From positions 1-61,606 of IMG/VR virus record IMGVR_UViG_3300030372_004181: a DNA stretch of 61,606 nt. The stretch is one strand, 5' to 3'. Every line of letters begins with the position of its first letter. Position 1 is the stretch's first letter. Below are positions 8,535 to 61,606 of this stretch, one piece after another. The stretch is from a virus. Its lineage: Duplodnaviria > Caudoviricetes. Under the pieces are notes generated by a model. It searched no databases. It was not told where the DNA came from and saw only the letters and a list, made by a program, of their open reading frames with translations. The position numbers were made by a program, and so were the translations under genes.

Positions 8535-8732
8535 ATGGACGGACTATGGTTGAGCGATAAGATACTTCGTATCATTCGCGACAAAAAACAAAAGACTACA
8601 GATTTTGTTATGCAAGGCAGCACGACAGAAAGAGCTGACTATAATTTTATGATTGGTCAATATCGTATCTTAGAAGAAATAGAAGATGAGATAAAAGAGA
8701 TCTTAAAAAAAGGAGAACAAAACGATGAGTGA
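8535..8732 (+). CDS. Small helical hypothetical protein
   Basis: ORF between portal region and GroES. Confidence 0.8.
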   Translation: MDGLWLSDKILRIIRDKKQKTTDFVMQGSTTERADYNFMIGQYRILEEIEDEIKEILKKGEQNDE

Positions 8733-9234
8733 TTTAATATTACCCACGCACATGGCTAAAGCCAGAAAAAAAGAAAAAATAAAAGTTGCAGAAGAAGGAA
8801 AAACAATTGAAGAATTAGAAAAAAACCAAAAGAAAGTAGAAGAAATATATGGAACAAGAGAATCTAAATACCTGGACCCTGATAATATTGACAGCGATAT
8901 TGCTGAAAAACTACCTCGTCCCACTGGTTGGAGGATTTTAATTTTACCTTATTTAGGTGCAGAACGCACAAAAGGTGGAGTTATTTTATCTGATCAAACA
9001 CGTGAAAGAGAGCAGTTAGCAACCGTTTGCGGTTATGTAGTAGCCACTGGCCCTGATGCGTATGGAGATACAGCTAAGTTTCCTGAAGGACCTTGGTGTA
9101 AAAAAGGTGATTGGGTGATCTTTGCCCGTTATGCGGGGTCAAGATTAAAAATTGACGGTGGTGATTTAAGACTCTTGAATGATGACGAAATACTTGCTAT
9201 AATACAGGATCCGACTGACATATTACATATGTAG
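8725..9234 (+). CDS. groES: Co-chaperonin GroES (Cpn10)
   Basis: PTGWRILI...TKGGVIL...VVATGPDAY...GDWVIFARYAG...LLNDDEILA is the Cpn10 signature. Confidence 0.92.
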   Translation: MSDLILPTHMAKARKKEKIKVAEEGKTIEELEKNQKKVEEIYGTRESKYLDPDNIDSDIAEKLPRPTGWRILILPYLGAERTKGGVILSDQTREREQLATVCGYVVATGPDAYGDTAKFPEGPWCKKGDWVIFARYAGSRLKIDGGDLRLLNDDEILAIIQDPTDILHM

Positions 9235-11365: not shown

Positions 11366-12271
11366 ATGGCTATAAATAGATCACAACTTGCAAAAGAGTT
11401 GGAACCTGGTTTGAATGCACTATTTGGACTAGAATATCAAGGCTATGAGAATCAACACGCTGAAATCTTCGACACAGAAAACTCTGACAGAGCTTTCGAA
11501 GAAGAAGTAATGTTGTCAGGCTTCGGTTCTGCATCAGTTAAACCAGAAGGTTCTTCTGTTAACTTTGATAGCGCAACTGAGTCTTTCACAGCTCGTTACT
11601 CTCATGAAACAGTGGCACTGGCTTTCCAGATTACTGAAGAAGCTGTAGAGGATAACCTTTACGACAAGATCAGTACTCGTTATACGAAAGCTCTTGCACG
11701 TTCAATGGCTCATACAAAACAAGTTAAAGCTGCAAACGTTTTAAACAACGGTTTCGACTCTAACTTTAAAGGTGGAGACGGTGTGGAGTTATTTTCTTCA
11801 GCTCACCCAACTACATCTGGTAACCAAAGAAATGAGTTAGAGACGCCTTCAGATCTTAATGAGACATCTTTAGAGCAAGCAATGATTGACATTGCTGCTT
11901 TTGCTGATGACAGAGGTCTAAAAGTTGCTGCTAAAGCTCGTAAGTTGATTATACCTTCAGCTCTACAATTCACTGCAGAAAGATTAATGAAATCTGCAAA
12001 CAGAGTTGGAACTGCTGATAATGACATCAACGCATTAGCATCAAAAGGAATGATTCCTGAAGGCTATGTAGTGAACAACTACATAACTGACACAGACGCA
12101 TTCTTTATCAAAACTGATGTGCCTAATGGTATGAAACATTTCCAAAGATCACCGATCGCTACTTCTATGGAAGGCGACTTTGAAACAGGAAATATGAAAT
12201 ACAAGGCTAGAGAGCGTTACAGCTTTGGTTTCTCTGATTGGAGAGGAATGTTTGCTTCTGAAGGAGCGTAA
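11366..12271 (+). CDS. Major capsid protein
   Basis: 301 aa, GGGAGG RBS, followed by strong terminator; MAINRSQLAKELEPGLNALFG N-terminus and GGDGVELFSSAHP motif (Mu gpT-like HK97-fold family). Confidence 0.9.
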   Translation: MAINRSQLAKELEPGLNALFGLEYQGYENQHAEIFDTENSDRAFEEEVMLSGFGSASVKPEGSSVNFDSATESFTARYSHETVALAFQITEEAVEDNLYDKISTRYTKALARSMAHTKQVKAANVLNNGFDSNFKGGDGVELFSSAHPTTSGNQRNELETPSDLNETSLEQAMIDIAAFADDRGLKVAAKARKLIIPSALQFTAERLMKSANRVGTADNDINALASKGMIPEGYVVNNYITDTDAFFIKTDVPNGMKHFQRSPIATSMEGDFETGNMKYKARERYSFGFSDWRGMFASEGA

Positions 12272-13547: not shown

Positions 13548-14219
13548 ATGGCTGTATCAGGTTCTACTGATTTTAGCATAGATGCTGCAGAAGTAATTCA
13601 AGAAGCTTACGAACGTTGTGGGTTACAAGAAGTTACTGGAAAAGACTTGCGTACAGCAATACGTAGTATGAACTTGCTGATGTCTGAGTGGGCCAATCGT
13701 GGTCTTAACTTATGGACTATTCAACTTGGAACACAATCAACAACAGCAAGTGATGCTGACTACACTTTAGCCACAAATATTGTAGATGTTTTAGAAGTTG
13801 TATTAAGAGATGCTAATAGTTTAGATACAAATCTTGGTAGAGTTAGTCGTGCTGATTATCACATGCTTCCAAATAAAAGCACCGAAGGTAGACCATCTCA
13901 GTTTTATTTTGAAAGAACAACGACGCCAACTTTGTTTTTGTACCCAACTCCTGATTTATCTACATATACCGTAAGATATTATTACTTAAAAAGACTAGAT
14001 GATCTTGATTTAGCCACAGATGATCCAAATGTTTCATTTAGATTTTTGCCTTGCTTAGTTGCAGGTATGGCTTATTATCTTGCTATGAAAAAAGCACCTG
14101 AAAAAGTTCAACTGTTGAAAGCAGTTTACGACGAAGAATTTGAACGAGCTCGACAAGAAGACAGGGAGCGCTCTAGTTTTAGCGCAGTTCCTGGACGAGG
14201 GTACTTTAACAACTACTAA
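13548..14219 (+). CDS. Putative head-tail connector / adaptor protein
   Basis: EAYERCG...SMNLLMSEWANRGLNLW...GRPSQFY...LYPTPD pattern typical of podovirus adaptors. Confidence 0.7.
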   Translation: MAVSGSTDFSIDAAEVIQEAYERCGLQEVTGKDLRTAIRSMNLLMSEWANRGLNLWTIQLGTQSTTASDADYTLATNIVDVLEVVLRDANSLDTNLGRVSRADYHMLPNKSTEGRPSQFYFERTTTPTLFLYPTPDLSTYTVRYYYLKRLDDLDLATDDPNVSFRFLPCLVAGMAYYLAMKKAPEKVQLLKAVYDEEFERARQEDRERSSFSAVPGRGYFNNY

Positions 14220-16088: not shown

Positions 16089-16799
16089 ATGCTTAAGGGT
16101 ATTTCAATACTAGTTATTGTATTAGTTGGATTTTTATGGATGTTTGGTTCTTTAATGGACTCCGCAATGGCAGACGTCACAGGCGCTGGCTCAACAAACA
16201 ACACACAAAATACATCAGGATCATCAGCTAGTAACACAGCAATTACGGGCGGCTATCACAGTGAGTCCACAACAAACTATCAAGATGGTTCATCATCTAA
16301 TACAACTACAAACAACAGTACTACAAACAATTCTTATACTGGTGATCAACGTACGGTGCCCTCTGCATCTGCTCCGGGTATTTCTGCAATGTCACAAGAT
16401 CTTTGCACTGTAGGTGTATCTGCAGGTTTGCAAAAACCATTGATAGGTGCAAGTCTTGGTATTACAAAACGTGATATGAATTGTGAACGTATGAAGTTAT
16501 CTAAACTATTATTTGATTTTAACATGAAGGTTGCTGCTGTATCCATACTATGTCAAGACAGCAGAGTATTTCAAAGCATGGCACATGCTGGAACACCGTG
16601 TCCGTTTAATGGCAAAATAGGTGATGCTGCATTAGAAGAATGGAATAAATATGACAAAGAAAGACCCGACTACGAAGAGTATGTGGCGTCATTACGATAC
16701 ATGGAAAAAGTAGATAACAAAATCTTGGAGGAGTTAAATGAAGAACCTATTATTGTTGACGGCGATGGCAACGCTGTTATCCTCGGTAGCCAAAACTGA
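16089..16799 (+). CDS. Secreted / membrane-anchored protein
   Basis: Signal-like N-terminus, S/T/N-rich linker, Cys-containing domain (DMNCER...LCQD...TPCP). Confidence 0.8.
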   Translation: MLKGISILVIVLVGFLWMFGSLMDSAMADVTGAGSTNNTQNTSGSSASNTAITGGYHSESTTNYQDGSSSNTTTNNSTTNNSYTGDQRTVPSASAPGISAMSQDLCTVGVSAGLQKPLIGASLGITKRDMNCERMKLSKLLFDFNMKVAAVSILCQDSRVFQSMAHAGTPCPFNGKIGDAALEEWNKYDKERPDYEEYVASLRYMEKVDNKILEELNEEPIIVDGDGNAVILGSQN

Positions 16800-19733: not shown

Positions 19734-22685
19734 ATGGTTTTAAAAATAGAAGATAGAGTCAGAGAGACCACAACCACAACGGGAACCGGAACATATAGTT
19801 TAGGCGGAGCAGTCAATGGTTTTCAATCTTTTGTTACAGCAATTGGTGATGGTAACACTACTTACTATGCAGTTGTTAATCGTAATGCTGATGAATGGGA
19901 ACTTGGTATTGGTACAGTAGCTGACGCAACACCTGATACCTTAGCTCGTACTACAGTTATCTCAAGTTCTAACAGTGATAGTGCTGTTAGTTTTAGTGCG
20001 GGAACAAAAGATGTTTTTGTAACTTTACCTTCTAGTAAATCAACTTTTATAAATGGTAGTAATAGTCTTGTCATTGGTAATGGAGCAGCTGGTGTTGACT
20101 ACAGTCTTACGTTTGACGGCGAAAGTAATGACGGAGTTATAACTTGGAAAGAAGACGAAGACTACTTCTTGTTCTCTGACGATATATTAATGAACAGCAC
20201 CGAAAAAATTCAATTTGGTGACACTGCATCTTTTATACAACAATCATCTGATGGTACTTTACGTATAGATGGTGAAGCAATTATTGATTTAAACGCAAGT
20301 ACAAGAGTTGATGTATCTGGAGATATAAAAGTTGGTGGTGAAGTACAAACAGCCAATATTGGATTTACAGATGGTGATAATGCCCTCGTTATTGTAGATG
20401 GTGGTGGAGTTACTCTTAGCACAAGTTTAACCTTAGCAAGTGGTTCAACCGTTACATCTATAAAAGATGAGGATGATATGGCAAGTGACTCAGCAACAGC
20501 ACTAGCTACTCAACAATCAATTAAAGCTTTTGTTGCAGCATCAATAACAGCTGAAGATTTAGATATAACAACTGACAGTGGTACGATTGCAATTGACCTT
20601 GACAGTGAAACGTTAACCGTTGCCGGTGGTACAGGATTAGCCTCAAGTGCTTCTTCTAATACAGTTACACTAGCAGTCGATGCAGCACAAACAGGAATTA
20701 CTTCTGTCGTTAATACAAGTTTAGAAATAGGTAGAGACGCAGACAACAGAATTAAATTTGGAACAGACAATCAAATTATCTTTGAAGTGTCTGGTGGCGA
20801 CAATGTCATATTTAAAGCAAGTGGTGAAATCGAAGCGTCTAGCTTAGATATATCGGGAGATGTGGATGTTGATGGCACGTTAGAAACAGATGCACTTTCA
20901 ATTAATGGAACTGCGGTAACATCAACAGCAGCTGAACTTAACATTTTAGATGGTGTAACATCAACAGCAGCTGAATTAAATATACTAGACGGCGTCACTT
21001 CTACAGCAGCTGAATTAAATATTTTAGATGGTGTAACTGCAACAGCAACAGAACTTAATTATAGTGATACAGGAGCATCTGTAGGTACGGTAGTTGCAAG
21101 CAAAGTTGTAACAGCAGATGCTAATAAAGATGTAGCATCTTTTAGAAATATTACATTAACAGGTGAACTTGATGCAGGTTCTCTTGATGTAAGTGGTGAT
21201 GCAGATATTGATGGTACATTAGAGGCTGATGCAATAACGGTTAATGGCACTGCTTTATCTAGTGTAATAGCCGGGACAACAGTTACACTAGCATCTACAG
21301 TAACAGTTACAGACAGCACAGCTAATACGAACTTTCCTGTTGTGTTTCATAATGAATCAAATGGTTTATTAGATGACACCGGTGCACTAAGATATAATCC
21401 AAGTACAGGAGAATTACTCGTACCTAAACTAACTGTAGCAGGTACAACTACGACTGTAGATACAGTTACAATGCAGGCTGAAAATGCAATAATATTTGAA
21501 GGAGCTACTGCTGATGCAAATGAAACTACGCTTACAATTATAGATCCCACTGGAGATAGAACAATTAATCTACCAAACGTTTCAGGTACATTACCTGTAT
21601 TAGCAGCTGCAAGCACAACACAGATTACATCTACACCTGAAGAATTAAACACACTAGATGGTATTACCGCAGTGGTTGGTGAACTTAATGCTCTAGATTT
21701 AGGTAGCACAGCAGTTGGAACAGCGATTGCTTCCAAGGCAGTTATTTTGGATTCTAATAAAGATTATACCGGTATTAGAAACTTAACTATTACTGGTGAA
21801 TTAGATGGAGCAACACTAGATATATCTGGTGATGCAGACATTGATGGAACATTAGAAGCTGATGCTATTACAATTGGTGGCACAGCTATAAATACAGTCA
21901 TAGCTGGTGTTACTGTAACAAATGCTACCAATGCAGCGCACGTATCTGTAGCTGATAATGAAAGCACAAATGAAAATAATTTAATACCGTTTATTGAGGA
22001 TGAGTCTGCTACCGGTAATGTTGGTTTAGAATCGGACGGAGACTTTACATACAACCCAAGCACGGGCAGACTTACAGCGACGCAACTAGCCGGTACACTA
22101 CAAACAGCAGCTCAAGCAAATGTCACATCTTTAGGTACACTGACCACGTTGACCGTAGACAATGTCATAATAAATGGATCAACTATAGGACACACTGGCG
22201 ATACAGACTTAATGACAGTTGCAAGTGGAGTCTTGACTGTAGCTGGAGAAGTGTCCATGACAACTTTAGATATAGGTGGCACTAACGTTACATCTACGGC
22301 GGCTGAGTTAAATATTTTAGATGGCGTTACGTCCACTGCCGCAGAATTAAACATATTGGATGGCGTGACTTCTACTGCAGCAGAACTAAATGTACTCGAT
22401 GGTATCACCGCAGTAGTAGGTGAGCTTAACGCATTAGATCTAGGCAGCACAGCAGTTGGTACAGCTATTGCTTCTAAAGCAGTTATTTTAGACTCAAACA
22501 AAGATTATACAGGTATTAGAAATTTAACTATTACAGGTGAACTAGACGGAGCTACATTAGACATATCCGGTGACGCAGATATAGATGGCACATTGGAGGC
22601 AGATGCCATCACAATAGGCGGCACATCAACAGATACACTATATGCATCTCCGGGGTTCGCAGTTGCGATGGCAATCGCTCTGTGA
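19734..22685 (+). CDS. Long tail fibre protein
   Basis: N-terminal DRVRETTTTTGTG, TSTAAELNILDGV repeats, duplicated 77-aa block, C-terminal AVAMAIAL. Confidence 0.85.
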   Translation: MVLKIEDRVRETTTTTGTGTYSLGGAVNGFQSFVTAIGDGNTTYYAVVNRNADEWELGIGTVADATPDTLARTTVISSSNSDSAVSFSAGTKDVFVTLPSSKSTFINGSNSLVIGNGAAGVDYSLTFDGESNDGVITWKEDEDYFLFSDDILMNSTEKIQFGDTASFIQQSSDGTLRIDGEAIIDLNASTRVDVSGDIKVGGEVQTANIGFTDGDNALVIVDGGGVTLSTSLTLASGSTVTSIKDEDDMASDSATALATQQSIKAFVAASITAEDLDITTDSGTIAIDLDSETLTVAGGTGLASSASSNTVTLAVDAAQTGITSVVNTSLEIGRDADNRIKFGTDNQIIFEVSGGDNVIFKASGEIEASSLDISGDVDVDGTLETDALSINGTAVTSTAAELNILDGVTSTAAELNILDGVTSTAAELNILDGVTATATELNYSDTGASVGTVVASKVVTADANKDVASFRNITLTGELDAGSLDVSGDADIDGTLEADAITVNGTALSSVIAGTTVTLASTVTVTDSTANTNFPVVFHNESNGLLDDTGALRYNPSTGELLVPKLTVAGTTTTVDTVTMQAENAIIFEGATADANETTLTIIDPTGDRTINLPNVSGTLPVLAAASTTQITSTPEELNTLDGITAVVGELNALDLGSTAVGTAIASKAVILDSNKDYTGIRNLTITGELDGATLDISGDADIDGTLEADAITIGGTAINTVIAGVTVTNATNAAHVSVADNESTNENNLIPFIEDESATGNVGLESDGDFTYNPSTGRLTATQLAGTLQTAAQANVTSLGTLTTLTVDNVIINGSTIGHTGDTDLMTVASGVLTVAGEVSMTTLDIGGTNVTSTAAELNILDGVTSTAAELNILDGVTSTAAELNVLDGITAVVGELNALDLGSTAVGTAIASKAVILDSNKDYTGIRNLTITGELDGATLDISGDADIDGTLEADAITIGGTSTDTLYASPGFAVAMAIAL

Positions 22686-31373: not shown

Positions 31374-32878
31374 TGCCTTTATCAAAAATACAATTACAAC
31401 CTGGAATTTTTACAGATGACACTGTTTATTCGCAAGAAGGTAAATATATTGATTCTGATAAAGTTCGTTTTATGAAAGGCCGACCTGAAAAAATAGGTGG
31501 TTGGGCAAAACTAGACACAGACAATATTGCAAGTGGAGTGGTTCGAGCATTACTTCCATATCGCGCCAACAACTCAAAACGTTATATTGGTATTGGTACT
31601 CACAGTCATTTATATTTGTATGATGATGGTGCAGGTAGTTATATAGATATTACACCAGCTTCAAATTACACAGCCGGCGCACAACACACAACGATTAGTT
31701 CAGGTACGTATACTTATAATACTATGTGGACATTAGATATGTTTGGTGAAGATTTAATTGGTGTCAACGGTATTGGTGGGCGACTTGTAAGATTAGATAC
31801 AAGTGCTTTTCAATCAAATGCAGCGACTAATGCTGTAACAGAAACAACCACAGGAGTTCCGGCTTCTGCAAATGGTGTGATTGTAAACTCTGCATCGAGA
31901 CAAGTTGTGTTGTACGGAGCTCATGATGGCACAGCAGCAAACCCTATGAATGTAGCTTTTTCTGATCTTGCAGATATTTCAGATTTTGTTGCGGCTACTT
32001 CTAATTTTGCAGGCGCACAAGTATTGACAGGAGGTAACTTATTACTTGGAGCTATACGTACACGAGGTACAATATTAATATTTTCTGATACATCGGTATT
32101 TACCATGACCTTTGTCGGTCAACCTGATGTATTTGCATTTCAACAAGTTGCAGAAAACGCTGGCATTGTTGGACCACAAGCAGCAGCCGAGTTTAATGGC
32201 ACTGTATTTTGGATGGGTAACGATGGCTTTTATCAGTTTTCTGGTGGAGTACAACAAATACCATGTTCCGTTGAACGTCATGTGTTTGATAACTTAAGTA
32301 AACAACAAAAGATGAAATGTTTTGCAGGTATAAACCCTAAGTTTAATGAAGTATGGTGGTTTTATCCTATAACAAATGATATAGCGTCCGATGATATTAC
32401 TAAGTATGTAATTTATAACTACAAAGAACGAGTGTGGTCTATCGGTTCATTAGTTAGAGGTGCTTGGGCACCTGAAGGTATTTACGATAACCCAATTGCA
32501 AGTTCAGTTTCTGCAACATCGTCATACATCTACAAACACGAGTTTGGCACTGATGATGAATCGTCGGCCATGTCTTGTAGTTTAACATCCGGTGATATTG
32601 ATTTACCGCAAGATGGTGATGATATTATGTTTATTGATAAAATTGTACCTGACTTTGATGATCAAGTTGGTTCAGTCAGTATGAATTTAAAATTTAGATT
32701 GTACCCGAACGCTTCTCAATTAACAGAGGCAACTGAAACACTTGCAACATCAACTGAGTTTGCAAGTATAAGAGCACGCGGACGACAGATGTCTATGATT
32801 CTATCAAGTAATGCAACCAGTTCACATTGGAGACTTGGTGACATTCGTTTGAATATTCAACCTGACGGTAAACGATAA
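31373..32878 (+). CDS. Putative tail nozzle / P22 gp10-like stabilisation protein
   Basis: ~500 aa beta-propeller-like; D.DKVRF..G.PEKIGGW N-terminus and PDGKR C-terminus. Confidence 0.7.
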   Translation: MPLSKIQLQPGIFTDDTVYSQEGKYIDSDKVRFMKGRPEKIGGWAKLDTDNIASGVVRALLPYRANNSKRYIGIGTHSHLYLYDDGAGSYIDITPASNYTAGAQHTTISSGTYTYNTMWTLDMFGEDLIGVNGIGGRLVRLDTSAFQSNAATNAVTETTTGVPASANGVIVNSASRQVVLYGAHDGTAANPMNVAFSDLADISDFVAATSNFAGAQVLTGGNLLLGAIRTRGTILIFSDTSVFTMTFVGQPDVFAFQQVAENAGIVGPQAAAEFNGTVFWMGNDGFYQFSGGVQQIPCSVERHVFDNLSKQQKMKCFAGINPKFNEVWWFYPITNDIASDDITKYVIYNYKERVWSIGSLVRGAWAPEGIYDNPIASSVSATSSYIYKHEFGTDDESSAMSCSLTSGDIDLPQDGDDIMFIDKIVPDFDDQVGSVSMNLKFRLYPNASQLTEATETLATSTEFASIRARGRQMSMILSSNATSSHWRLGDIRLNIQPDGKR

Positions 32879-50850: not shown

Positions 50851-51544
50851 CGAACCAAAATCGTTAATTACAGAAAGATATTCTTACGGGGATGTTAAAC
50901 GTAAAACAATTAATGGCCGACGTCATTATGAAGGCGAGGGAAAGTTTCTCCCGTCCGTTACAACAATCATCTCCACCACCAAGAGCCAAAAAGATAAAGA
51001 AGGTTTACTTAGGTGGAAAGAGCGAGTTGGCGAAACGGAGGCTGAGGCGATTAAAAGCCAGGCGGCGTCTGTAGGTACAGCTATGCATAAATTCCTCGAG
51101 TGTCATATAAAAGGGCTTGGCTACGATGACCAAACAAACATTGGTATCATAGCCAAGCGAATGGCACAACTAATCGTTAGGAATGCCTTGCCATCAATGG
51201 ATGAATATTGGGGCACCGAAATCCCCCTTTTCTACCCCACATTCTATGGTGGCACGGCCGATTGTACAGGAGTTTGGCGTGAACAGCCAGCAGTTATTGA
51301 TTTTAAACAAACCAACAAACCTAAAAAAGATGAATGGATTGAAGATTATTTTATACAACTTGCGGCTTACATCATGGCTCATGACGCATTATATAAAACA
51401 AAGATGGAAGCGGGTGTTATACTTATGGCGTCACGAGGTATGACATTGCAAATGTTTACATTGAACGGTGATAAACTTGATGACTACAAATACAAATGGT
51501 TAAAACGTTGCGAACAATATTATTTAGGAGAAATGAATGGTTAA
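50831..51544 (+). CDS. PD-(D/E)XK exonuclease
   Basis: PSVTTI, W.ERVG, GT.MH, E..L, GTAD, IDFKQ, YF.QLAAY. Confidence 0.88.
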   Translation: MVMQESNEPKSLITERYSYGDVKRKTINGRRHYEGEGKFLPSVTTIISTTKSQKDKEGLLRWKERVGETEAEAIKSQAASVGTAMHKFLECHIKGLGYDDQTNIGIIAKRMAQLIVRNALPSMDEYWGTEIPLFYPTFYGGTADCTGVWREQPAVIDFKQTNKPKKDEWIEDYFIQLAAYIMAHDALYKTKMEAGVILMASRGMTLQMFTLNGDKLDDYKYKWLKRCEQYYLGEMNG

Positions 51545-54117: not shown

Positions 54118-54585
54118 TTAGTCTTTAACTTCTTCTGAATCAACTTCTATTACGTTCATCTTACTCATCAAATCAGATATTCTTTCTTGTACTTCTGCGT
54201 CTGTAAGTTGATCTATCTTACCATGTTTGACATGCATTTCATTGATGTATAATCCTGCCGCCTTACCACGCGCAACTTCTGCCTGGACTGCTGCTGAATA
54301 GGATTCTTTTTCGACAGCCGCGTCTCTTATTTTTTGTAGTTCTTTAAAGTGTCTATCTATTGTTACGTTATATTTCTTTTGCACTTCTTCGCGCACACGT
54401 TTGATTTCTTCACAAACCAAAGGATAATATTTTACATTTTGTAGTTTTGAGGCATGATGTCTTGCAGATGACTCTGGGTAACCGGCACGTATGGCAGCTT
54501 CAGTTGCCGTTATCCGCCCTTCATTACTAATTAATTCGTGAACAAAAATAATTTGTTTTTCGGTTAGTTTCTTTGGTACTCCCAC
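54118..54585 (-). CDS. terS: Terminase small subunit
   Basis: LTEKQ..F...ATEAAIRAGY..SA...AS.L HTH pattern; AVQAEVARGKAAGLY; GTG start with GAAAGG RBS. Confidence 0.85.
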   Translation of the reverse strand: MGVPKKLTEKQIIFVHELISNEGRITATEAAIRAGYPESSARHHASKLQNVKYYPLVCEEIKRVREEVQKKYNVTIDRHFKELQKIRDAAVEKESYSAAVQAEVARGKAAGLYINEMHVKHGKIDQLTDAEVQERISDLMSKMNVIEVDSEEVKD

Positions 54586-58979: not shown

Positions 58980-59006
58980 AAGATATTAATTAAGAGAAAG
59001 AATTAT

Positions 59007-59225
59007 ATGATAAATCAAGAAATATTAAAACCCATTGTTGATTTAATTAAAACACTATCCAACAAACAAATTGAATTAAGCACAGAAATATTAAAAATTA
59101 GATATGAAAATTTGGAACTACTTAAAATATTAAAATCAAGTTCAGTTTTAAATCAAGATGAAATTATTAAAATATATAAGAAGGGGGAGGATTATGAAAA
59201 TTCAAAAATCGAAACTAGAAATTAA
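59007..59225 (+). CDS. Small hypothetical protein
   Basis: GAGAAAG RBS after promoter. Confidence 0.65.
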   Translation: MINQEILKPIVDLIKTLSNKQIELSTEILKIRYENLELLKILKSSSVLNQDEIIKIYKKGEDYENSKIETRN

Positions 59226-59325
59226 TTTGCTGAAACAAATCCAACAAAAAGTGAAGGACAGAATAAAGAAAGATTATAAAAATATAAATCTATCACCATT
59301 TTTTAGACAGCGAGGCAGATCATGA
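59194..59325 (+). CDS. 43-aa basic peptide (not in ORF track)
   Basis: GGGGAGG RBS. Confidence 0.55.
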   Translation: MKIQKSKLEINLLKQIQQKVKDRIKKDYKNINLSPFFRQRGRS

Positions 59326-59420
59326 AAAAGATAATTAGACAATTAACATTTGAGGGGTGGTTTGTTGTATTTGCATTTGGCTATATCATTTCTCAAGTGA
59401 TAAGATATTTTATACAATAA
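59322..59420 (+). CDS. 32-aa membrane peptide (not in ORF track)
   Basis: GAGG RBS, ATGA coupling, hydrophobic core. Confidence 0.5.
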   Translation: MKKIIRQLTFEGWFVVFAFGYIISQVIRYFIQ

Positions 59421-59541
59421 TTAAAATATTCCTTAGACGTCTTTGGATAGAGAGAGTGTCAAAACTATGTATGCACACGCTTTTTGATACTCTTTCGCTT
59501 AAATATATTGCTTATTTTTTCAAGTGTTGTTATCTTGAAAA

Positions 59542-59940
59542 ATGGCTATCAAAACCGAGTCAAAACTATGGCTCTTAATTAAAAAAAACACCCCATCAAT
59601 TTGTTGGAATAGATTGGAAAACAGTATTAATGCTGGCCTGCCTGATTTAATCGGCTCTATTCAAGGACATAATTTTTTCACTACTGAATTAAAGATAACC
59701 CACGACAACAAAACAATTCGATTTTCACCTCATCAAATAGCTTTTCATAAAGTCAATCATGGTATTAAATTTATTATGGTTGCGCCCCTCGACCTCTCAT
59801 GCCTAAAACTTTTTGACCATCAAATAGCCGTCGTCCCTCGACCATTGATCGCTGACTATGAACCATTGATAACGATCAATGACACAACGGACAAAAGACA
59901 ATGGACAAAGCTCATTAAAATAATTCAAAATAAATGCTAG
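59542..59940 (+). CDS. PD-(D/E)XK nuclease, VRR-NUC / Holliday junction resolvase-like
   Basis: ES.LW...W.RLEN...G.PDL.G...ELK...FSPHQIAFH. Confidence 0.78.
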   Translation: MAIKTESKLWLLIKKNTPSICWNRLENSINAGLPDLIGSIQGHNFFTTELKITHDNKTIRFSPHQIAFHKVNHGIKFIMVAPLDLSCLKLFDHQIAVVPRPLIADYEPLITINDTTDKRQWTKLIKIIQNKC

Positions 59941-59947
59941 AAAGTGC

Positions 59948-59976
59948 TTGACAAGATTAGATTTTCATGATATAAT
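59948..59976 (+). promoter_or_regulatory. Consensus sigma70 promoter
   Basis: TTGACA-17-TATAAT; no credible ORF directly downstream. Confidence 0.8.
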
Positions 59977-59997
59977 ACATGGTATAATAGGGGGAGA

Positions 59998-60019
59998 AGT
60001 GTTGCATTTTTGCAACACT
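59998..60019. promoter_or_regulatory. Perfect palindromic operator-like box
   Basis: AGTGTTGCA-TTTT-TGCAACACT. Confidence 0.6.
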
Positions 60020-60103
60020 CGCTGCGCTCGTGGGTTGGCGCTTGCGCGCTCGCTGGCGCTCGCGGGTTCACCTCCAGCTCGCTCGCTTGCGCTCGCTCGC
60101 TTG
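60018..60103. repeat. GC-rich GCTC / CTCGCT-N(1-2)-CGCTCG repeat island
   Basis: Multiple copies; paralogous island at 60696..60749. Confidence 0.8.
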
Positions 60104-60121
60104 TCCGTTATTCCTGGAAAG

Positions 60122-60130
60122 TTATCCACA
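60122..60130 (+). promoter_or_regulatory. DnaA box
   Basis: TTATCCACA, perfect consensus, intergenic. Confidence 0.6.
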
Positions 60131-60148
60131 ATTAATGCTAGAAAATGC

Positions 60149-60177
60149 TTGACAACGGACCACGAATAGTTTATAAT
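60149..60177 (+). promoter_or_regulatory. Consensus sigma70 promoter
   Basis: TTGACA-17-TATAAT; shares upstream AATGCTAGAAA(G/A)TGC with the 59948 promoter. Confidence 0.8.
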
Positions 60178-60209
60178 ATGGGGTGGCGGGGCGGGATAAA
60201 ATAAATATT

Positions 60210-60225
60210 TGTTTCACGTGGAACA
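60210..60225. promoter_or_regulatory. parS: parS site
   Basis: TGTTTCACGTGGAACA; reverse complement TGTTCCACGTGAAACA fits chromosomal consensus TGTTNCACGTGAAACA. Confidence 0.8.
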
Positions 60226-60234
60226 AATTAACCG

Positions 60235-60263
60235 TTGACAGCTGTGCTTTATTATGCTATAAT
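60235..60263 (+). promoter_or_regulatory. Consensus sigma70 promoter
   Basis: TTGACA-17-TATAAT with ATTATGC before -10. Confidence 0.85.
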
Positions 60264-60296
60264 TAATTAAATTAAACAAAGAGAAAGAGAAAGCAA

Positions 60297-60590
60297 ATGA
60301 AACAAACACTAACTGAATTTGAATTTTGTAATCAATTTAAAAAAATAAGACCAGACAATTTTACATATGAGGGATTGACTGCATTGTTCGCATACTTCGA
60401 ACAATGGGAAGCGGACACCGGTCAAGAGATGGACTTTGATCCAATAGCTTTTTGCTGTGAATGGGCAGAGTATAAAGACATGGAAGAATTAAACGAGGAC
60501 TATAATGCCGACTATGATTTTGAATCATTGTGTGGTGACACTCAAGTCATAGCAATGAGCAATGGCGGTATTATAGTACAAAAATTTTAA
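60297..60590 (+). CDS. Acidic early protein
   Basis: R.DNFTYEGL.ALF.Y.E...FDPIA.CCEW.EY; own promoter and RBS. Confidence 0.8.
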   Translation: MKQTLTEFEFCNQFKKIRPDNFTYEGLTALFAYFEQWEADTGQEMDFDPIAFCCEWAEYKDMEELNEDYNADYDFESLCGDTQVIAMSNGGIIVQKF

Positions 60591-60596
60591 CATATT

Positions 60597-60662
60597 CCCG
60601 GCGCTTTTATTTGCTTTAGCGCCGGGCTTTCTCGCGTCCTGGGTTGTTTAGTTCCCAGGGCG
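60597..60662 (+). terminator. Twin hairpins / putative terminator
   Basis: CCCGGCGCT/AGCGCCGGG (60597-60626) followed by CTTTCT; second stem 60635-60662. Confidence 0.55.
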
Positions 60663-60677
60663 TAGAAAAAGCTTGAC

Positions 60678-60749
60678 TGTTGCAAAAATGCAACGGCTCG
60701 CTGCGCTCGCTAGTTAGCGCCAGCTCGCTCGCTGCCGCTCGCTCGCTCG
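60678..60749. repeat. Operator-like box plus GCTC repeat island (copy 2)
   Basis: TGTTGCA-AAAA-TGCAACG followed by CTCGCTGCGCTCG...GCTCGCTCGCT. Confidence 0.75.
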
Positions 60750-60784
60750 TTTATTATTTTTTTTTAAAAAAAAATTAAAAAAAT

Positions 60785-60793
60785 TTATTCACA
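60785..60793 (+). promoter_or_regulatory. DnaA box-like site
   Basis: TTATTCACA fits TTWTNCACA; same relative position (after GC island, before promoter) as 60122. Confidence 0.45.
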
Positions 60794-60811
60794 AATTAAT
60801 TTATTTTATTA

Positions 60812-60840
60812 TAGACAACAATCCCATAATATGCTATAAT
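60812..60840 (+). promoter_or_regulatory. sigma70 promoter
   Basis: TAGACA-17-TATAAT, extended TG. Confidence 0.8.
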
Positions 60841-60869
60841 GATTCTCAACTAAACAAGGAGAAAGCAAA

Positions 60870-61121
60870 ATGAATCAAGAACAAAAAATAATAGAAGCAG
60901 CTCTAGAAGAATTTCAAATAAAAGATGTGAGAGCAGAGACAGTGTGCCAGGCTATGAAATGTATTTTTCTAGTGTGTTGTACTCGCGATGATAAAAACTT
61001 AAGTAAGATGGCAACGAGCGACCTCGGTCTTTCGCTATTAAAACTTGCTCAATTTTATGGTGAGTCTGGAGAAACTAATCGAAGAGATTTTATTCTCGCT
61101 GCCGCTCGCTGGAGAAACTAA
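60870..61121 (+). CDS. Hypothetical early protein
   Basis: AAGGAG RBS; own promoter. Confidence 0.7.
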   Translation: MNQEQKIIEAALEEFQIKDVRAETVCQAMKCIFLVCCTRDDKNLSKMATSDLGLSLLKLAQFYGESGETNRRDFILAAARWRN

Positions 61122-61137
61122 TCGAAGAGATTTTATT
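61066..61137. repeat. 29-bp direct repeat
   Basis: CTGGAGAAACTAATCGAAGAGATTTTATT at 61066-94 and 61109-37, flanking CTCGCTGCCGCTCG. Confidence 0.85.
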
Positions 61138-61142
61138 AACTA

Positions 61143-61184
61143 TTGACAGTTGTCCCACATTATGCTATAATGTGGGCAACTTAA
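61143..61184 (+). promoter_or_regulatory. Consensus promoter plus palindrome (repeat of the 8..49 cassette)
   Basis: Identical to 8..49 and 61532..61573. Confidence 0.9.
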
Positions 61185-61206
61185 AACTAAACAAGGAGAA
61201 AGCAAA

Positions 61207-61524
61207 ATGACACACGATTATAGAAAACGATTAGAACCGCAAGACTCACAAAAAACTGTGCACGTTGGTACAAGTGACACCAGCGGAGACGTTAAGGTAG
61301 CGGACTTACAACTTAGCCTAATGTATCGCGCATTGCTGGCGCATCCAAGGAAGTTAACGCGCACACAGCCGCCGGCCCTGGCATGGTGGAAACAGGTCTT
61401 TGGACTGAAGGGCAACAAAGAAAAAATAAAAGCCGAAGCTAAAAAGATATGGCTGGCAAGACTAGGCCCACAGGACGACGGCTACAAAGACCGAGTGTTA
61501 AAAGTTACAACCTCCGGTGAGTAA
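61207..61524 (+). CDS. Hypothetical early protein
   Basis: AAGGAG RBS; GLKGNK motif; flanked by identical promoter cassettes. Confidence 0.8.
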   Translation: MTHDYRKRLEPQDSQKTVHVGTSDTSGDVKVADLQLSLMYRALLAHPRKLTRTQPPALAWWKQVFGLKGNKEKIKAEAKKIWLARLGPQDDGYKDRVLKVTTSGE

Positions 61525-61529
61525 TTAAG

Positions 61530-61606
61530 TATTGACAGTTGTCCCACATTATGCTATAATGTGGGCAACTTAACAGGAGAAAAAGCAAATGAAAGATCAA
61601 ATGGAC
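61530..61606. repeat. Terminal direct repeat / circular overlap (copy 2)
   Basis: Identical to 6..82. Confidence 0.9.

Follow-up and report, generated by a model that had tools for sequence, protein, structure and literature searches.

A chromosomal-type parS site in an HTVC023P-type podophage without parAB: a putative loading site for host ParB

Bacterial chromosomal parS, as reportedly described by Lin and Grossman in 1998 and by Livny et al. in 2007, has the consensus tGTTNCACGTGAAACa, and Lin and Grossman are also said to have found that a single chromosomal parS stabilizes a plasmid through host Spo0J and Soj. In the plasmid-prophages P1 and N15, phage DNA is segregated via the element's own ParA and ParB and its own, different parS. 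The lytic phage phi29 carries five parS sites, and evidence implicates host Spo0J in the segregation of its genome to the prespore (PMC2731898; PMC9437464); with this case published, a lytic phage bearing an orphan host parS is an established principle. The parS mimics of SGI1 are reported to bind the ParB of a helper plasmid, stabilize SGI1, and expel the plasmid as copy number rises (PMC10954446). A literature search outside subscription journals returned no report of a chromosomal parS in any pelagiphage, nor in any lytic phage whose host does not sporulate, and neither parS nor ParB is mentioned in the main genome paper on the HTVC023P-type group, to which the phage described here belongs.

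The stretch of DNA analyzed here (the window) is a single IMG/VR virus record, 61,606 bp long and with a completeness rating of 100%. Its first and last 82 bases are identical save for one mismatch; the record is labelled linear, and the end match would fit a terminal repeat as well as a circular assembly. The genes lie almost exclusively on the plus strand. Profile searches (Pfam, PHROGs) identified TerL (622-2100), the major capsid gene (11366-12271), and, on the minus strand, terS (54118-54585), together with a portal, a GroES-like gene, tail genes, and replication genes for an AEP primase, a UvrD-like helicase, a family A DNA polymerase, and an exonuclease. The GroES-like (Cpn10) gene, at 8725-9234, carries an N-terminal extension and sits in the head module between the portal region and a scaffold-like gene. 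Because its capsid protein shares 70-72% and its polymerase 53-56% identity with those of the Pelagibacter phages HTVC023P and HTVC027P and of phage 023Pt_psg01, the window can be assigned to the HTVC023P-type podophages. A preprint describes this group as devoid of integrases and probably strictly lytic, as the most abundant known group in marine viromes, and as including some members that may infect other phyla.

A predicted chromosomal-type parS occupies positions 60210-60225 of the window, reading TGTTTCACGTGGAACA on the plus strand and TGTTCCACGTGAAACA on the minus strand, with two inverted half-sites, one TGTTTCAC and the other TGTTCCAC. The minus strand has no mismatch to TGTTNCACGTGAAACA. 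For the membership match we used the 16-bp word tGTTNCACGTGAAACa, which we take to be the parS consensus of the literature, and the window's site fits it exactly. An earlier note on this DNA, made from its letters alone, had pointed to this intergenic match and considered it improbable in 61 kb. Both points hold: given the base composition, 1.3e-4 exact sites are expected by chance in the window on both strands, and no other match with one mismatch or fewer occurs in it. The same note had described the phage as lacking parAB and dnaA, and indeed no ParA, ParB, or DnaA family was found among 89 window ORFs with Pfam (E<=0.01) or among 46 with PHROGs. The site lies about 1.9 kb upstream of TerL across the record junction, and a nucleotide search of the surrounding 2.1-kb region against GenBank phages gave no match. 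A parS-like word with two mismatches, TGTTAAACGTAAAACA, occurs within the exonuclease gene of the window (50893-50908) and of a close relative (G110, 13917-13932); it is probably conserved coding sequence and not a site.

The site falls, as do two DnaA-like boxes taken up below, between the ORFs at 59542-59940, 60297-60590, and 60870-61121. This presumed early region contains six consensus or near-consensus sigma-70 promoters within 59948-61560 (five with 12/12 and one with 11/12 hexamer matches), the first at 59948-59976 on the plus strand. Two of the 12/12 promoters, both on the plus strand, flank parS. The upstream one (60149-60177; TTGACA, 17 nt, TATAAT) would give a transcript running through parS and is conserved in all five aligned sequences, including two without parS. 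Directly after its -10 element follows a G-rich leader, GGGGTGGCGGGGCGGG (60180-60195, plus strand), which hardly differs among the five aligned sequences (L245 has a single substitution), in contrast to its variable surroundings, and which looks able to form a G-quadruplex. The downstream promoter (60235-60263) has a TG extension and a -35 element beginning 9 bp past parS; it drives a 97-aa ORF and is found in relatives both with and without parS.

The genes on either side match known protein clusters. The 132-aa ORF at 59542-59940 (plus strand) matches PHROG 2165 (E=2.7e-8) and has a PD-(D/E)XK-like motif by eye, and the acidic 97-aa early ORF downstream of parS, at 60297-60590 (plus strand), matches PHROG 9974 (E=4.7e-10). 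Fifteen viral loci hold homologs of the latter, none with a parS (at most two mismatches) in the surrounding 3 kb; parS and the 97-aa gene are therefore not linked. GC-rich islands of GCTCGCT-type repeats lie at 60001-60110, about 100 bp upstream of parS, and at 60681-60750 and 421-530; all 13 GCTCGCT copies in the window are confined to 60048-61104 or to position 447, and the islands at 60001-60110 and 60681-60750 begin with a short hairpin (GTTGCA-N5-TGCAAC) near a promoter-like site. GC-rich repeats of a GCTTG type also adjoin the parS of HTVC027P, L285, L313, and L300, and those of HTVC027P are annotated as the minus-strand CDS gp32. One guess is that the islands are an origin or packaging site, or encode a small RNA; a search of 59000-61606 against Rfam gave no RNA family match at E<=1. 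Near-identical cassettes of promoter and ribosome-binding site (61135-61209, 61525-61606, and 1-82) precede successive small early genes.

The closest relatives differ in whether they carry the site. Contig L245 covers the orthologous region (its 132-aa gene product is 94% identical to the window's), as does L247 (TerL 98% identical), which is the same contig as L246; the latter was dropped as a duplicate. At the orthologous place, L247 has a parS identical to that of the window and L245 has a perfect palindrome, TGTTTCACGTGAAACA. In two other relatives, L248 and L249 (TerL 85-88% identical), the G-rich leader and its two neighboring promoters are retained but parS is missing, its position being taken by a 10-column gap in L248 and by unrelated sequence in L249. 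Judging from the alignment, parS appears to have been gained or lost on its own among these close relatives.

Further out in the group, the site recurs at positions that are not homologous. HTVC027P carries CGTTTCACGTGAAACA at 16412-16427 of MN698241, inside an unannotated ORF homologous to the 132-aa ORF of the window (tblastn, 50% identity, E=2e-24); the site lies inside the match, where it encodes the codons A-F-H-V-K-H, and L285 has a parS placed in the same way, as judged by its near-identical flanks. In G060 and G071 the site follows the capsid gene by a few bases and precedes a terminator-like hairpin, and in G001 and L017 it lies within a scaffold-like gene. Five contigs (L016, L043, L055, L059, L091) have it 35-150 bp upstream of TerL, five others (L022, L026, L051, L063, L125) in the TerL-to-portal region, and two (G075, L266) in other intergenic DNA. 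The core GTTTCACGTGAAAC is intact at all these places. The five copies upstream of TerL are identical at 16 of 16 positions, with flanks that barely align and offsets that differ.

An exact parS scan of IMG/VR, for which all counts given here refer to the matches listed, returned at least 132 stretches. Fourteen of those listed proved to be HTVC023P-type by tblastn with the window's proteins; their sites precede TerL, fall between it and portal or at the portal end, lie within the scaffold-like gene, or adjoin terS or the GP88-like gene. All 14 fall in the terS-to-scaffold arc, about 29% of the genome; this preference is a lead only, the contigs being related and their recognition having needed conserved genes within 1.5 kb.

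The recurrence was set against background in 918,351 bp from 176 loci fetched by protein homology, with L246 and all loci fetched via a parS match left out. In this set GTTTCACGTGAAAC is the commonest of 70 distinct perfect 14-bp palindromes, with five occurrences in five loci, where about 0.003 core sites per Mb are expected from base composition; among 420 palindromes of the same half-site composition, 418 never occur. The comparison with background that the earlier note had proposed comes out on the side of enrichment. In the loci of TerL and of the 132-aa gene (703,300 bp), five distinct contigs carry a site with at most one mismatch, against 0.07 strand-hits expected, and a reversed control pattern gave one match at two mismatches or fewer. 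The intact core is present in 3 of 80 capsid-gene records (750,226 bp) and in none of 14 records of the 97-aa gene. Four of eight complete genomes of the group carry parS (the window, HTVC027P, G001, and G071, the sites of the last two having two mismatches each, at the outermost bases), and four do not (HTVC023P, 023Pt_psg01, DSL-LC04, and G101). Absence from relatives had been named beforehand as a point against the site; parS recurs in relatives, though roughly half of these lack it, two of the closest four among them. Because the contigs are related to one another, the site counts are not independent events. The data show that a host-type site is strongly over-represented and has been repeatedly gained in this phage lineage.

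Degenerate palindromes with a changed core (CACTTG or CATGTG) were also seen, in G104 (20517-20532), G126 (C3:71627-71642), and G055 (32068-32083). Such variants are a second site in one phage contig and one SAR11 genome and the sole site in a 79%-complete relative, and they might be weak ParB sites.

Sites of this kind also occur outside the group. Phi29-like contigs, which carry the Phi29 capsid, Gp16 ATPase, and protein-primed polymerase, account for 15 of the at least 132 parS-bearing IMG/VR loci, among those listed, and served as a positive control for the scan; several perfect parS each were seen in L009, L010, L019, L034, L035, L046, L075, and L076, and L050 and L070, whose collar and connector genes are of phi29 type, resemble further members. 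Another phage type, with a TerL about 30% identical to the window's, is represented by L036 and L095, which have five perfect copies of TGTTTCACGTGAAACA within about 0.8-0.9 kb beside the TerL homolog (L036 1501-2288; L095 301-1228). In L036 the five sites are bracketed by an Sf6-like small terminase gene and the TerL homolog, and no ParB was found in the short flanks of either contig. One perfect parS each was also noticed in L014 and L054 (4.7 and 6.0 kb), which have a microvirus-like replication initiator and virion structural genes, the major head gene being carried by L054; these sites may be chance or belong to another lineage with parS. Around other parS-bearing viral loci, within 1.5-kb flanks, no ParB was found in 39 ORFs (Pfam) or in 87 ORFs from 39 loci (PHROGs), a range too short to take these phages as devoid of ParB. 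The IMG/VR matches listed thus hint at orphan host parS, often near terminase genes, in several other phage lineages.

Other phages gave mixed results. The core-intact site is absent from nine pelagiphages of other types (473,645 bp), and CRP-901 and CRP-902 (Roseobacter), GB2A and RW (Caulobacter), and MinM2 (Synechococcus), whose capsid proteins are 39-60% identical to the window's, have no site at two mismatches or fewer. The Alcaligenes phage vB_Af_QDWS535 (capsid 47.5% identical) carries TGTTCCACGTGGAACA, which we take to be a Pseudomonas-type parS, 1.9 kb upstream of its terminase gene. It lies within a 1.3-kb non-coding stretch (L487 2100-3396; OK172329.1 47599-48895) with iteron-like repeated words resembling TGGGGAC and CGTGTTC and an A/T tract of about 90 nt, a stretch that looks like a replication origin.

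SAR11 bacteria, which are non-sporulating, are the host of the cultured relatives, and the comparison with host parS was made with Pelagibacter genomes reached through a published SAR11 16S probe used as a pattern. All ten large or complete SAR11 genomes have one core-intact parS each, and 31 of 50 partial genomes (single-cell or metagenome) also have a site. In the five genomes tested for ParB, parS lies about 1.5 kb from a single ParB_N gene; a ParA-like gene adjoins parB in the matches for these five, and SMC is present, above the cut-off in four. The 41 positive genomes divide into the variants TGTTTCACGTGAAACA (23), AGTTT... (10), CGTTT... (5), and TGTTCCACGTGAAACA (3), that is, T-, A-, or C-GTTTCACGTGAAACA together with TGTTCCACGTGAAACA, the same set as in the phages. 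The window's exact variant is the sole match at one mismatch or fewer in Pelagibacter sp. Uisw_116 and Uisw_136 and in the partial genome G137, and no similarity is visible by eye between phage and host flanks. SAR11 therefore has ParB and the same parS, in agreement with what the earlier note had expected of a host, with the reservation that it may not be the window's own: the G+C of the window, about 37%, exceeds the published range of cultured pelagiphages (30.4-35.0%), and a search of 50 SAR11 genomes for its capsid protein (E<=1e-20) was negative, which gives no direct host link.

In one study of infection, HTVC027P had a latent period of about 18 h and relied on host RNA polymerase throughout, and by 60 h lysis had reached more than 80% of the host cells; SAR11_0353 (parA) and SAR11_0354 ("chromosome partitioning protein") have read counts in a supplementary table (PMC12753301).

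The reading that we prefer, on which we are evenly divided, is that the 16-bp element is an orphan centromere, a putative binding or loading site for host chromosomal ParB in a lytic phage without parAB. The recurrence of one intact core at many unrelated places points to selection for a host-ParB site able to work from many positions. After injection, host ParB would nucleate at the phage parS and then spread as a CTP-dependent clamp, as in established ParB biochemistry, so that the host ParA/ParB machinery would carry the phage genome as cargo, and SMC might also be loaded there. The likeliest benefit would be that phage DNA is positioned on the nucleoid and passed to both daughters of a cell dividing during the long latent period, a proposed non-sporulating counterpart of the Spo0J/parS-mediated spore entry of phi29, with competition for the host's single parS as a side effect. 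ParB binding and everything downstream of it is what we infer. The fullest version, in which the phage genome is partitioned to both daughters within the latent period of about 18 h and spreads vertically without lysogeny while out-competing the host's lone parS, is a tentative proposal that we consider somewhat less probable than its opposite; if true, lytic phages of non-sporulating bacteria would here be seen to hijack a centromere for the first time. The suggestion made earlier, that the site positions or segregates phage DNA, is partly supported, by the host-type parS and the phi29 precedent, and leaves room for ParB sequestration as the effect selected instead.

Several observations count against a centromere. 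The site is dispensable, since only four of eight complete genomes have it and L248 and L249 do without. Several copies are part of coding sequence and could owe their preservation partly to constraint on the protein. Integrase and plasmid-maintenance genes are absent from the group, which is described as strictly lytic, and lysis of host cells exceeds 80% by 60 h. Each genome has a single site, where phi29 has five. Finally, the G+C of the window exceeds that of the cultured pelagiphages, and its capsid gene was not found in the 50 SAR11 genomes.

The main rival, which we think rather unlikely as the principal explanation, is that the site is a decoy: phage parS copies would outnumber the host's, strip it of ParB, and with it of ParA/SMC activity, and so stall host segregation and division. 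Because SAR11 genomes have one parS each, a modest phage copy number would dominate, and a decoy would work from any position, fitting the scattered locations. Precedent exists in SGI1, whose parS mimics destabilize the owner of the ParABS system in a copy-number-dependent manner (PMC10954446). Yet a single site per genome is a poor titrator beside an array, and about half of the complete relatives manage without one. The host is lysed anyway, so that any gain from blocking its segregation is hypothetical, and a MipZ-type link between ParB and division in SAR11 is unsupported: the Pfam MipZ model is unspecific, having matched 14 of 14 control genomes, and its SAR11 matches were weak and partial, the best adjoining parB. 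Segregation and decoy would not be exclusive, by analogy with SGI1.

A local regulatory role is improbable. Here ParB or another factor would tune the early promoter 9 bp downstream or insulate the tandem promoters, an idea invited by the position of parS between two 12/12 consensus promoters in the early region, by the promoter-rich intergenic DNA upstream of TerL in which several relatives have their sites, and by ParB-family proteins such as KorB, which are known repressors. A promoter-specific operator is nevertheless difficult to maintain, because in L248 and L249 both promoters persist in the absence of the site, and other relatives have it inside genes or after the capsid gene, away from any promoter context.

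Improbable, too, is the absence of function, the site then being a palindrome formed by chance, a neutral leftover of host DNA that the phage had captured, or the target of an unrecognized phage protein that resembles parS by coincidence. Any of many known motifs could have been noticed, the site is missing from many relatives, and some of the single-site matches in other phages, among the IMG/VR matches listed, may be chance. Against this stands an independent recurrence orders of magnitude above expectation. The flanks are dissimilar by eye between phage and host, the site variants match the host's, and no ParB-like or other candidate binder was found among the 89 ORFs (Pfam) or 46 ORFs (PHROGs) of the window.

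The earlier note had also drawn in DnaA, and its two boxes are where it placed them: a perfect 9-mer, TTATCCACA, at 60122-60130 (plus strand), intergenic and 80 nt upstream of parS, and a 9-mer with one mismatch, TTATTCACA, at 60785-60793 (plus strand), inside an A/T-rich tract 560 nt downstream. Both are judged to be chance, with one exact box observed in the window against 0.77 expected from base composition, 18 matches at one mismatch or fewer against 19.9 +/- 4.4 in shuffles, and no cluster of boxes above chance. The perfect box is kept in one of four aligned relatives, L245 reading TTATCCACA; the position reads TTATTTGTA in L247, TTGTCCGTA in L248, and TTGTCCACA in L249. That parS and the DnaA boxes jointly imitate host oriC and titrate DnaA is therefore scarcely credible, the perfect box being at chance level and not conserved, and DnaA sequestration is likewise unsupported: only parS, not the DnaA boxes, exceeds chance.

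If host ParB does load on the phage, a 16-bp site would be enough to plug a lytic virus into the chromosome-segregation machinery, a use of host segregation by lytic viruses documented so far only for phi29 and spore entry. Because the HTVC023P-type group is reported to be the most abundant in marine viromes and its host has one centromere, even a modest effect on infection through division or on host segregation could shape the infection dynamics of the ocean's dominant bacterium. The parS site would also offer a simple sequence marker for host prediction and for finding phages with delayed or carried infections.

Set beside the known systems, the putative centromere of the window shares with P1 and N15 the segregation of phage DNA through a ParB/parS interaction, here only proposed; it differs in that the window encodes neither ParA nor ParB (Pfam, PHROGs) and has the sequence of its likely host. 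SGI1 is likewise a mobile element without partition genes that carries copies of another replicon's centromere. It is, however, an integrative element and not a lytic phage, it exploits the ParABS of a helper IncC plasmid and not that of the chromosome, and it adds a helper protein (Sci). To the chromosomal parS of bacteria the likeness is one of sequence, with the same 16 bp and a single site both per SAR11 genome and in the phage; the host sites examined lie beside parAB, whereas the phage site has no partition genes nearby and varies in position among relatives. From phi29 the window is set apart by number and setting: five sites in about 19 kb against one in 61.6 kb, sites paired with Spo0A boxes that suspend the lytic cycle with the endospore as goal against likely hosts that are non-sporulating Gram-negative bacteria and a phage in which no sites for host regulators were identified, and a protein-primed family B polymerase against the family A enzyme of an HTVC023P-type podophage, the two lineages being unrelated. 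What the two have in common is that both are lytic phages without parAB whose sites are identical to a chromosomal parS, that of the host in phi29 and that of the likely host in the window.
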